The position numbers and the translations under genes are program-made. From UHGV virus genome UHGV-0039940: a stretch of DNA of 17,129 bases; one strand, 5' to 3'. This DNA comes from a virus. Every line of letters starts with the position of its first letter. The stretch's first letter is position 1. Below, in pieces: positions 3,941 to 6,107 of this stretch. The notes below the pieces were generated by a model. It saw only the letters and a program-made list of their open reading frames with translations. It made no database searches and was not told the origin of the DNA.

Positions 3941-3966
3941 AAAGAAAACCCGGCGCTGAGGCCGGG
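3941..3966 (-). terminator. Rho-independent terminator ending the cI-linked cassette
   Basis: Minus-strand CCCGGC-ctcagc-GCCGGG followed by TTTTCTTT, 8 nt after the TAA stop at 3975-3977. Confidence 0.7.
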
Positions 3967-3974
3967 TTAATGCG

Positions 3975-4595
3975 TTAATGCTGGGGAGTGATTTTTTTGT
4001 TGTCTGTTGGCTGGGTATTTTGTGGCGGCGCTTGCAAAGTGGAAGGCTGTTGCAAAGGTGCGTGGTCTGACTTTAAAGCTGATACCAGCCCGGGAATCGC
4101 AACTATTACAGCGATAATGACACTAAAAATGGCTAATCGTATAGAAATACCCGACTGAACACCACTAATTGCGGTATTAACCCCTGTTATTTGTCCTTGA
4201 ATTCCTTCGAATCTCCCATTAATTGCTTTTATATCGCCAGCAGCGCTATCCATCTTTCCATCGATCTTGGACGATAGAGAGCTTATGGCTGCATTAAGTG
4301 ATGCAAATTGGACATTAACGCTTTCACGAGATAGAGCCATGTCAGCCCTAATGGAGGAAGCAATAGACTCCATCTCTGCTTTATTAGCAGCTAAGCGAGC
4401 ATCAAGTTCCTCTCTGCTGATCGTTCCCACTTCTTCCTCCGTTTGTGGCGGTTTTATGTAATTATTTTGCACCTTGGTGGGAGAATTATCAAATTCAGCC
4501 TCAAAATCAGAACCGCCAACAACCTTCAACCTCCGGCTTTCAGATATGTTGGTGTCTTGCTTTCCATGATTATTTAAATTACTGTCGTCACTCAT
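3975..4595 (-). CDS. Gene C of the cI-linked cassette: 206-aa protein with polar N-terminus, Ala/Ser-rich helical region, one transmembrane helix and Pro/Gln-rich tail
   Basis: ORF MSDDSNLNNHGKQDTNISESRRLKVVGG... with hydrophobic stretch LAIFSVIIAVIVAIPGLVSAL; its ATG overlaps the gene B stop (ATGA at 4592-4595). Confidence 0.65.
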   Translation of the reverse strand: MSDDSNLNNHGKQDTNISESRRLKVVGGSDFEAEFDNSPTKVQNNYIKPPQTEEEVGTISREELDARLAANKAEMESIASSIRADMALSRESVNVQFASLNAAISSLSSKIDGKMDSAAGDIKAINGRFEGIQGQITGVNTAISGVQSGISIRLAIFSVIIAVIVAIPGLVSALKSDHAPLQQPSTLQAPPQNTQPTDNKKITPQH

Positions 4596-5026
4596 AATAG
4601 CTCTACGGTGAAAAATGATTCATTTTTATGAAGTTCATTTTTAGGGTCTTCATTATCTTGCAATATCCCTATAACACTATACAGCCCTTTAGCTGGGACC
4701 CTAATTTCTTTCAATGTTACTATTACCTGTCCGCCAACCCCTGTTTCAAAATGGCTATCTTTCGTATCGATGAAAAGTGAAACTGATTCCGAAGAGCCGT
4801 CAGGGAATTGAATTTCCTCACCTTTTTTTATAATTAGGTGCGCGGGGATTACCATAATACCCAAATTATATCTTGAATTTGGTTTCAACCCGATCATACC
4901 AACCCTGAAATCAATTGATAGCCGCGCAGGAAATTCATTGCATGTAAAATTAAGCGTCGGTTGGTTGGGTTCTTCGCTGCTATCAAATGGGGTTATAAAA
5001 GATATTCTTTCTAAATTAAGTGCCAT
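4592..5026 (-). CDS. Gene B of the cI-linked cassette: 144-aa hypothetical protein
   Basis: Start chosen at MALNLERISF... (ATG at 5026) preceded by AGGAGAATTT; the 162-aa track ORF extends into a spacer without an RBS. AT-rich. Confidence 0.6.
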   Translation of the reverse strand: MALNLERISFITPFDSSEEPNQPTLNFTCNEFPARLSIDFRVGMIGLKPNSRYNLGIMVIPAHLIIKKGEEIQFPDGSSESVSLFIDTKDSHFETGVGGQVIVTLKEIRVPAKGLYSVIGILQDNEDPKNELHKNESFFTVELL

Positions 5027-5080
5027 AAATTCTCCTGCATCGCTGTATGCTCTACGAGCATCTCTGCGACCATCCATCAT

Positions 5081-5095
5081 CCAAACGTCTCTTCA
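5081..5095. repeat. 15-bp direct repeat, distal copy (fossil cI 3' end downstream of gene A)
   Basis: ccaaacgtctcttca is identical to 5452-5466; on the minus strand the context reads GAAGAGACGTTTGGATGA = E E T F G stop, mimicking the cI terminus. Confidence 0.8.
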
Positions 5096-5096
5096 C

Positions 5097-5438
5097 TCAT
5101 CCGAAGAAGCAGCAATCCGGGTCAGCACGCACAAGCTCAAGCGCATCAGTCAGCGAAAGTTCAGTACTGTACTGATGCCATTTCATATCCTTCCGCATCC
5201 AATAGATTTTCCATCTATCCAGAGAACGTATGTACTTGATTCTTGCTGATGGCAGGATGTTTGTTTCACCTGGGTTGCCCTGCCACACGGGGCGCTGTTC
5301 GCCGATATCTATCGTTTGGTCATTGATGCTATAAACAATATCCAGTTCATTGCGGATATGTTCAGGCGGCCTTATGCTTTCAATGAATTGGTGAACTTCT
5401 TTTTTGACCGCTTGATATTCAAGGTCAGTGAACGCCAT
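5097..5438 (-). CDS. Gene A of the cI-linked cassette: 113-aa hypothetical protein
   Basis: ORF MAFTDLEYQAVKKEVHQFIESIRPPEHIRNELDIVYSINDQ...; its ATG lies 9 nt after the cI TGA stop with AGGAGG between them (TGAGGAGGATAGATG). Confidence 0.65.
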   Translation of the reverse strand: MAFTDLEYQAVKKEVHQFIESIRPPEHIRNELDIVYSINDQTIDIGEQRPVWQGNPGETNILPSARIKYIRSLDRWKIYWMRKDMKWHQYSTELSLTDALELVRADPDCCFFG

Positions 5439-5447
5439 CTATCCTCC

Positions 5448-6107
5448 TCACCCAAACGTCTCTTCAGGCCACTGGCTGGCGATAACTTTCCCAACAACGG
5501 AACAACTCTCATTGCATGGGATCATTGGGTACTGTGGGTTTAGTGGCTGTAGAAACACCTGACCACTATCCCTGATCAGTTTCTTGAAGGTAAACTCATC
5601 ACCACCAAGTCTGGCTATGCAGAAATCACCTGGCTCAACAGCCTGCTCAGGGTCAACAAGAATTAACATCCCGTCAGGAAAACTGGGTTTGGAACCTGTT
5701 GGTGCGGTCATTGAGTTACCTTCAACCTCAAGCCAAAATGCAGAATCACTGGCTTTTTTGGTTGTGCTTACCCATCTCTCCGCATCACCTTTGGTAAAGG
5801 TTCTAAGCTCAGACGAGAACATCCCGGCCTGAACATGAGAAAAAACAGGGTACTCATATTGTTTTTTAACGGGGGCTGATGAGTATTCGCCAACAGGTGA
5901 AAATGTACCGTCGTGGTTGAATGAGACGTTATTAATACCAAGGTACTTAAACACCACACCAATCTCGTCAAGAGATGGATGACGAGATCCGCGCAACCAG
6001 TGACCAATTCCACCCTGCGTCATACCAAGCTCTTCAGCTAACTTCTCTTGAGTTATGCTGAGTTCTTTCATTCTGGATCTAGCCAGTTCATACCATTTCA
6101 TTTTCAT
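5448..6107 (-). CDS. cI: CI repressor with LexA/S24-type autocleavage C-terminal domain and a heterologous N-terminal DNA-binding domain
   Basis: C-terminal part from [15 protein letters not shown]...[57 protein letters not shown] matches lambda cI as I recall it; the N-terminal domain ([37 protein letters not shown]...) is different. Start at 6107 chosen; in-frame alternatives at 6101 and 6170. Confidence 0.85.
5452..5466. repeat. 15-bp direct repeat, proximal copy (authentic cI 3' end)
   Basis: ccaaacgtctcttca encodes the last cI codons (EETFG) on the minus strand. Confidence 0.8.

Follow-up and report, generated by a model that had tools for sequence, protein, structure and literature searches.

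Layout of the cI operon

The DNA analyzed here is the 17,129-nucleotide (nt) stretch of the virus genome UHGV-0039940, to which we refer as the window. It represents the early region of a lambdoid Escherichia coli prophage, and its closest genome match is E. coli SCU-104 (99.9%). We were concerned with three small genes, named A, B and C, that follow the cI-type repressor gene in the place where lambda carries rexA and rexB (the rexAB slot). The operon and the promoter region next to it contain the following features:

5448-6170, minus strand: cI-type repressor gene, HTH_3 plus Peptidase_S24 (Pfam Peptidase_S24 1.1e-28, HTH_3 2.3e-09)
5450-5448, minus strand: cI stop codon, TGA
5448-5466, minus strand: repeat copy 1, the 3' end of cI, which encodes ...PEETFG and the stop
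5448-5443, minus strand: ribosome binding site (RBS) of gene A, AGGAGG, read from the sequence and overlapping the cI stop codon
5097-5438, minus strand: gene A, 113 amino acids (aa), DUF3024; ATG at 5438, 9 nt past the cI stop
5077-5095, minus strand: repeat copy 2, a remnant of the cI 3' end at the junction of A and B-C
4592-5026, minus strand: gene B, 144 aa, phrog_5893; ATG at 5026 behind AGGAGA (5036-5031)
4595-4592, minus strand: B/C junction ATGA, in which the B stop and C start codons share bases
3975-4595, minus strand: gene C, 206 aa, phrog_5820
3968-3941, minus strand: intrinsic terminator equivalent to lambda tImm, a stem of 8 pairs, 6 of them GC, and then TTCTTTGCCT (T run)
3755-3727, minus strand: pL-like promoter TTGACC-17-TACTAT, between the terminator and N
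3095-3478, minus strand: N (Pfam N_peptide 2.3e-15)

A preliminary description of the window, made from the sequence, had already placed A, B and C here, and all three are present on the minus strand, together with the AGGAGG, the 9-nt gap and the ATGA overlap. The repressor gene is given as the longest open reading frame (ORF) from 6170; the start annotated in related phages is 6143. Its allele shares 93% nt identity with the cI of ev207, PhiR57_1, Nil2 and the Stx1-converting phage. The ORF listed for B extends to 5080 (162 aa), but the 144-aa reading is preferred because the additional 18 codons lie in the remnant of the cI 3' end.

The hairpin and T run at 3968-3941 are the strongest terminator-like site within 3400-6500, and no convincing internal promoter or terminator was seen in the cI-A-B-C unit. 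Together with the short gap between cI and A, this layout implies co-transcription of the three genes with cI, as had been proposed, ending before pL. The ATGA overlap likewise implies translational coupling of B and C. The genes had also been described as AT-rich, which holds for B and C (GC content 0.375 and 0.433) but not for A, whose 0.459 is that of cI (0.457). A, B and C belong to conserved protein families (DUF3024/phrog_3467, phrog_5893 and phrog_5820, respectively) and are not chance ORFs; their homologues occur in other genera, down to 35-60% identity. Rfam and tRNA scans of 3941-5466 found no RNA gene.

Two modules in the rexAB slot

The three genes had initially been taken for one system. 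Comparison with phage sequences indicates instead that A and B-C are independent accessory modules, with separate histories and distributions, stacked by recombination in the rexAB slot. In megablast searches against phages, positions 3900-5095 of the window (C, B and their leader) are 98.4% identical to HK542 and HK244, while for positions 5058-5475 (A with its flanks) the best matches, at 98.6-98.8% identity, are 933W and numerous Stx phages. The HK542 match stops at 5095 and the 933W match starts at 5058, which defines the module junction. In the immunity regions of the wild phages HK542 and HK244, which have lambda immunity, B-C comes straight after a lambda-type cI and before the same terminator and pL, and A is lacking. 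In 933W the order is cI, L0084 (the counterpart of A), L0083, stk, L0081 and tM; L0083 (res), stk and L0081 are absent from the window, where B-C takes their place.

The junction carries a trace of this history. A 19-nt direct repeat brackets gene A, its two copies (the cI 3' end and the remnant listed above) being identical at 18 of 19 positions, as found by repeat search and by alignment of the junction with HK542 and 933W. In 933W, L0084 is preceded by the same cI-tail remnant and RBS, as is its phi24B orthologue vb_24B_13c, despite the fact that the cI of 933W is different and ends 60 nt upstream. The conserved cI tail is therefore a recombination joint for cargo exchange, and cassette exchange by recombination at this place explains why cargo as unrelated as the Stk operon, the DUF3024 gene and B-C is found behind many repressors.

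The distribution of the genes is in accordance with this. Of 5426 complete E. coli genomes, 227 carry A, 49-51 carry B-C and 18 carry all three genes, so that A occurs without B-C in approximately 209 of 227 genomes and B-C without A in approximately 31 of 49. In IMG/VR loci A-B-C was found behind 5 repressor alleles and B-C alone behind at least 6 further alleles, while none of the C homologues examined outside Escherichia is accompanied by A. One could still argue for a single system of three components, all of them needed together, since the three genes lie side by side in the same orientation with a common terminator, and since the A-B-C order is kept in the 18 genomes and behind the 5 alleles. 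However, most carriers of either module lack the other, HK542 and HK244 have B-C right after cI, 933W has A with other cargo, and the cI-tail repeat around A is the mark of a separate insertion. As judged from this distribution, the three-component reading is already largely refuted, and we consider it very improbable.

Phages which share the cI allele of the window carry other cargo in the slot. Behind a near-same cI allele, PhiR57_1 (locus L008, 2158-3464) has two uncharacterised genes of 185 and 249 aa, and the Stx1-converting phage (L009, 2486-3007) has ORF b63. These are further candidates. A tblastn search of C against 50,697 phage records matched only HK542 and HK244, in whose GenBank records (EF120457, EF120458, JQ086373) the B-C sequences already stand as hypothetical genes.

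Gene A, a DUF3024 protein

Gene A matches Pfam DUF3024 (PF11225) over residues 4-113 with 108.7 bits (cutoff 24.9, 2.4e-31) and the PADLOC candidate PDC-S43 (PDLC05018) with residues 1-113 against a 115-position model (7.2e-42). Its nt identity with L0084 of 933W is 98.6%. The structure predicted by AlphaFold2 (AF2; predicted local distance difference test, pLDDT, 88.6) consists of a helix, a five-stranded sheet and a second helix, and PsiB, anti-CRISPR proteins and immunity proteins, which are small binding inhibitors, appear among its weak fold neighbours. A is a small non-enzymatic alpha/beta protein which is already catalogued as a defence candidate. PDC-S43 is a computational candidate whose sole mention in the literature searched is a genome inventory; our search of the literature on DUF3024, L0084/L0083, HK244/HK542 and PDC-S43 found no functional study or anti-phage test.

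A behaves as a single-gene unit, found in four different downstream contexts and also alone. It also occurs outside the cI slot, at the DinI/tail-fibre end of prophages: alone in Rahnella, and in Erwinia with the whole cargo of a 153-aa gene, the Stk kinase and a 47-aa gene. In Yersinia ruckeri it lies beside smpB. Besides the DUF3024-Stk cargo (Erwinia aphidicola, L010, 4001-6130), the DinI/tail-fibre end can hold, as in Yersinia (L005, 4695-5699), a pair made of C and a partner gene of the kind described below. Since both cargoes are found at that end as well, the repressor slot and the slot at the prophage end exchange the same cargo.

The cI operon of 933W and phi24B is expressed in lysogens (PMC4651098, PMC3342100). 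In norfloxacin RNA-seq of phi24B the value for vb_24B_13c was 0.65-fold (not induced), compared to 1.23 for cI, 1.16 for res and 1.81 for stk (PMC4651098, Table S4). For expression of vb_24B_13c in the lysogen PMC4651098 cites PMC3342100, whose account of two proteins, P2 and P3, places their genes downstream of cI and describes them as detected by two-dimensional gel electrophoresis with mass spectrometry (2D-PAGE/MS), lysogen-restricted by quantitative PCR and probably driven by pRM. This expression is given here as reported: it rests on the citation in PMC4651098, as does the link of vb_24B_13c to P2 and P3. The expected production in the lysogen is to this extent backed for the orthologue of A. 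The repressor promoter probably drives expression of both modules in the lysogen, with transcription of B-C from pRM being what we infer from its place in the operon.

Gene C and its relatives

Gene C (1e-76 to phrog_5820) is predicted to be a tail-anchored inner-membrane coiled-coil protein, with the following layout:

C residues 1-57: variable segment
C residues 58-152: heptad coiled coil
C residues 156-174: membrane helix
C residues 176-206: Pro/Gln tail

It has one strong hydrophobic segment, residues 156-174, with a mean Kyte-Doolittle value of 2.71. The coiled-coil region is rich in Ser, Ala and Ile, and the tail is 19% Pro and 19% Gln; the Ala/Ser-rich helical region, single membrane helix and Pro/Gln tail that had been read from the translation are thus all found. 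Neither A nor B has a hydrophobic segment.

The first search gave 28 homologues of C, and at E<=1e-3 an exhaustive profile search gave 286 clusters (clustered at 50% identity), a number that falls to 101 at E<=1e-10. Most relatives are 150-270 aa long and follow the same plan of a variable N-terminus, a heptad coiled coil and a single C-terminal membrane helix; this layout recurs in most of 139 further representatives inspected, and all of the 76 sampled family members match phrog_5820. The start of the stalk is conserved as REELDAxLxxNKAE, and insertions and deletions in the coiled coil come in units of seven. Within the motif L-A-A-N-K-A-E and its surroundings E63, A66, L68, N71 and E74 are nearly invariant across the 76 sequences, and K72 is nearly so among 23 closer homologues. 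In most relatives the membrane helix is followed by a periplasmic motif QP(I/T)(I/V)(I/V)(Q/Y)V(P/Q), for example QPIIIQVPQ or QPTVIYVQQP, and then by the Pro/Gln tail. In the HK542-type allele of E. coli this motif has degenerated to QPSTLQAPPQ, and the L030 variant has a 6-residue deletion there.

This plan of head, coiled-coil stalk and C-terminal membrane helix is also that of the CCDC90-like/DUF1640 proteins (PF07798; MCUR1/CCDC90B). These are described as membrane proteins, both prokaryotic and mitochondrial, that have a coiled-coil stalk and, where it starts, a beta-layer motif (PMC4786415). Pfam matches to this family over the stalk and membrane helix were found in 24 of the 76 relatives, all below the gathering score: the best score 32.3, 30.2 and 27.1 bits against 33.5, and C of the window 12.6 bits (E=0.12). 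LAANKAE, the most conserved motif of C, is similar, but not identical, to the DUF1640 motif [aliphatic]-A-T-K-x-[D/E], N replacing T, and C differs further in its periplasmic Pro/Gln tail and obligatory upstream partner gene. We therefore treat C as DUF1640-like in architecture, without assigning it to the family.

Against NCBIfam C gave only sub-threshold coiled-coil matches, to SlaB and MakE/MakA, and A and B gave none; B and C have no significant match in Pfam, NCBIfam or PDB, nor has A in PDB by sequence. Weak PDB matches of C to the alpha-pore-forming toxin SmhB/MakE, considered as a lead to a pore, were set aside as compositional, and a match of C to LmuB in PADLOC-DB 2.0 (E=0.016) is a chance coiled-coil match.

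Partner genes of C

At every locus examined a small gene on the same strand precedes C, and across Enterobacterales the pair almost always lies directly 3' of a prophage repressor gene, of either the S24 cI type or a short HTH (helix-turn-helix) type. Some of these loci came from a scan of IMG/VR with a C profile, and a C-profile scan of genome contigs gave only one, from Xenorhabdus. The pair stands behind a repressor in E. coli, Klebsiella/Enterobacter-type loci, K. oxytoca, Cedecea, Salmonella, Leclercia, Yersinia, Pectobacterium and IMG/VR contigs. The partner genes fall into the following families:

B1: 143-159 aa; the window, Klebsiella/Enterobacter-type loci, Cedecea, K. oxytoca, Xenorhabdus; phrog_5893
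B2: 92-97 aa; Yersinia, Leclercia, L049, L050, L052; no family match
B3: 98-101 aa; Pectobacterium, L051, L055, L056; no family match
B4: 112-135 aa; L044-L047; CxxC...CxxC, phrog_4293

Gene B itself matches phrog_5893 at 2e-50, and its predicted fold is a generic Ig-like beta-sandwich. B1-C is found behind at least 11 different repressor alleles, and the B1-type loci share the 4-nt overlap between B and C. The position behind the repressor, which had been noted in the window alone, recurs across genera and many repressor alleles. There are at least four partner families without detectable mutual similarity, and the 149-aa partner in Salmonella is not detected by the B1 profile. A common origin of the families was considered and rejected, since hhalign and BLAST show no relation of B1 to B2 or B3.

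The first approximately 55 residues of C change with the type of partner, while the coiled coil and membrane helix are conserved. Paired with B1, the N-terminus of C reads R-L-K-V-V-G-G-S-D-F-x-A-E-F-D-N, and paired with B3 it has a different conserved segment of approximately 40 residues. The best reason to think that B and C work as a complex is this combination of a constant membrane-anchored core, an N-terminus specific to the partner type and an exchangeable partner that goes with it, B being the presumed soluble and exchangeable partner of C.

Other features of the window

The remaining genes have the order expected for a lambdoid early region:

434-3478, leftward: exo/bet/gam, cIII, the Nmad5-domain gene and N
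Beyond cI, rightward: cro, cII, O and P

The Nmad5 (nucleotide modification associated domain 5) gene (2410-3093, minus strand) follows immediately after N in the pL operon (Pfam 1.8e-70, phrog_1965, GC content 0.395); HK542 has a 207-aa hypothetical gene in the same place. Inside exo an exact direct duplication of 265 nt (182-446 and 457-721) surrounds a run of 10 N at 447-456 and is almost certainly an artefact of assembly or scaffolding. On the plus strand, Rfam models of C4 antisense RNA, a1/b1 targets and isrK match at 10609-10809, just upstream of a 227-aa ORF (10863-11546). Together these look like an immI module of the P1/P7 type, a possible second immunity control. Further to the right, a match to the small RNA STnc100 (137.6 bits, 14475-14679, plus strand) comes after a 167-aa ORF (13745-14248) and is followed by a 111-aa ORF on the minus strand (14705-15040, GC content approximately 0.32). 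A weak tRNA-like Rfam match lies at 13574-13643, where ARAGORN makes no call.

Proposed function of B-C

No enzymatic domain or catalytic fold was found in A, B or C, and B-C must therefore act by binding or via the membrane. Lambda rexAB are prophage-encoded exclusion genes, and both rexAB and bstA adjoin a repressor gene. Two other genes supply precedents: bstA is the prophage-encoded exclusion gene of BTP1 (PMC8585504), and the kinase Stk, whose gene stands in the block from cI to the terminator in the 933W record, excludes phage HK97 (PMC3681748). Because of these precedents and the position in the repressor operon, we judge exclusion to be the most likely role of B-C. We tentatively propose a two-component system against superinfecting phages, with B as sensor or inhibitor and C as membrane effector, though we would not put this reading at an even chance.

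In such a system C would be the constant part, a coiled-coil oligomer, by analogy with DUF1640 proteins probably a trimer, with its C-terminal helix in the inner membrane. B would be the exchangeable cytoplasmic beta-sandwich subunit, docking on the variable N-terminal segment of C, and might either sense a phage product or hold C inactive. Upon infection the state of B-C would shift and C would perturb the membrane, leading to a Rex-like abortion of the infection.

The similarity to lambda extends to several levels. Like A-B-C, rexA-rexB lies directly 3' of cI in the same orientation with a terminator before pL, and each of rexAB and B-C pairs a soluble with an inner-membrane protein, presumably expressed in the lysogen in either case. 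The genes themselves are unrelated to Rex, as had been suspected, with no RexA/RexB Pfam match in A, B or C at E<=1. RexB, with its four membrane helices, is polytopic, while in C a long coiled coil leads up to one helix at the C-terminus, and unlike in Rex the soluble partner of C is exchangeable among at least four families. There is no counterpart of Stk either: the Pkinase domain was not found in A, B or C, and the 933W match covers only A. Two further systems, HepS (PMC13043305) and SNIPE (PMC13190303), were compared and are unrelated to A, B and C.

Several points weigh against an abortive-infection (Abi) role of the pair. The anti-phage role of A, B or C and the membrane mechanism are only what we infer. 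PADLOC-DB 2.0 yields no defence match for B or C. "Undescribed", the word first used for the cassette, does not hold for A, which is known as DUF3024 and PDC-S43, nor in the strict sense for B-C, given the hypothetical genes in GenBank. The contact of B with C is deduced from the co-variation of types, and with a pLDDT of 68 the model of B is of no more than moderate confidence. Single membrane helices, even when bundled, do not make an obvious channel. At two loci the pair lies away from the repressor, namely in Yersinia (L005, at the DinI-side prophage end) and in Xenorhabdus (L013, after a tape-measure-like gene). Finally, the conserved periplasmic motif suggests a periplasmic interaction which the Abi model does not need.

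This last point, and the neighborhood in Xenorhabdus, would fit with superinfection exclusion (Sie) in which, as with HK97 gp15, P22 SieA or T4 Imm, the inner membrane is where phage DNA is kept from entering. The cell would then survive, and the periplasmic Pro/Gln tail of C would contact the tail tip, the tape-measure protein or the entry channel. C is membrane-anchored, no enzymatic domain was found in it, and most of its relatives keep the motif and the tail. On the other hand, the E. coli allele has the motif only in decayed form, one variant carries the 6-residue deletion there, and a block of entry leaves the long cytoplasmic coiled coil and the exchangeable cytoplasmic partners without a role. 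B and C gave no family match to the known Sie proteins (SieA, SieB, HK97 gp15, Imm, Cor) in PHROG or Pfam, the PHROG matches all being to families of unknown function. We find this explanation clearly unlikely.

It is also conceivable that B-C is not directed against phages. It could be a toxin-antitoxin-like maintenance pair in which B neutralises a membrane toxin C, or a lysogenic-conversion or regulatory module that alters the host envelope or prophage induction, and A, too, may have a regulatory role, for instance in SOS or induction, instead of one in defence. Toxin-antitoxin pairs, too, typically show a small soluble protein followed by a membrane protein, translational coupling and partners that are mixed and matched, C resembles the CCDC90-like/DUF1640 scaffold proteins, A has the fold neighbours named above, and some genes in the rexAB slot serve purposes other than defence. 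However, no toxin or antitoxin family match was found in Pfam or NCBIfam, A is flagged by PADLOC on genomic association, and the conserved placement in repressor operons, with the other prophage-end cargo slots, fits the pattern of known exclusion genes. A role outside defence thus seems to us fairly unlikely.

Returning to exclusion as the preferred role, a broader proposal can be made, which we think is rather unlikely. The C-type proteins (phrog_5820, at least 286 clusters) may be an unrecognised class of tail-anchored, DUF1640-like coiled-coil membrane effectors which use at least four unrelated and swappable families of cytoplasmic adaptors through a co-varying N-terminal docking segment, and which form a new modular, repressor-linked family of prophage defence.

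For annotation, the present case shows that three adjacent genes, which it was tempting to over-read as one system, are two units. Anyone looking for systems that protect the lysogen from other phages does well to start from prophage genes co-transcribed with the repressor, which rank among the most promising places. If functional, B-C would be a prophage-borne, repressor-linked two-component exclusion system with a RexAB-like slot and a RexAB-like logic of one soluble and one membrane protein, and it would add a defence family without an enzymatic component. Its design, a constant membrane coiled coil with interchangeable small partners, would be open to dissection and could show how specificity modules are swapped on a common effector. 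To our knowledge bacterial DUF1640 proteins have no established function; if the broader proposal is true, bacterial DUF1640-like proteins would get their first assigned function, and B-C, if it is a defence system, would by itself suggest a role for the many membrane proteins of this kind.

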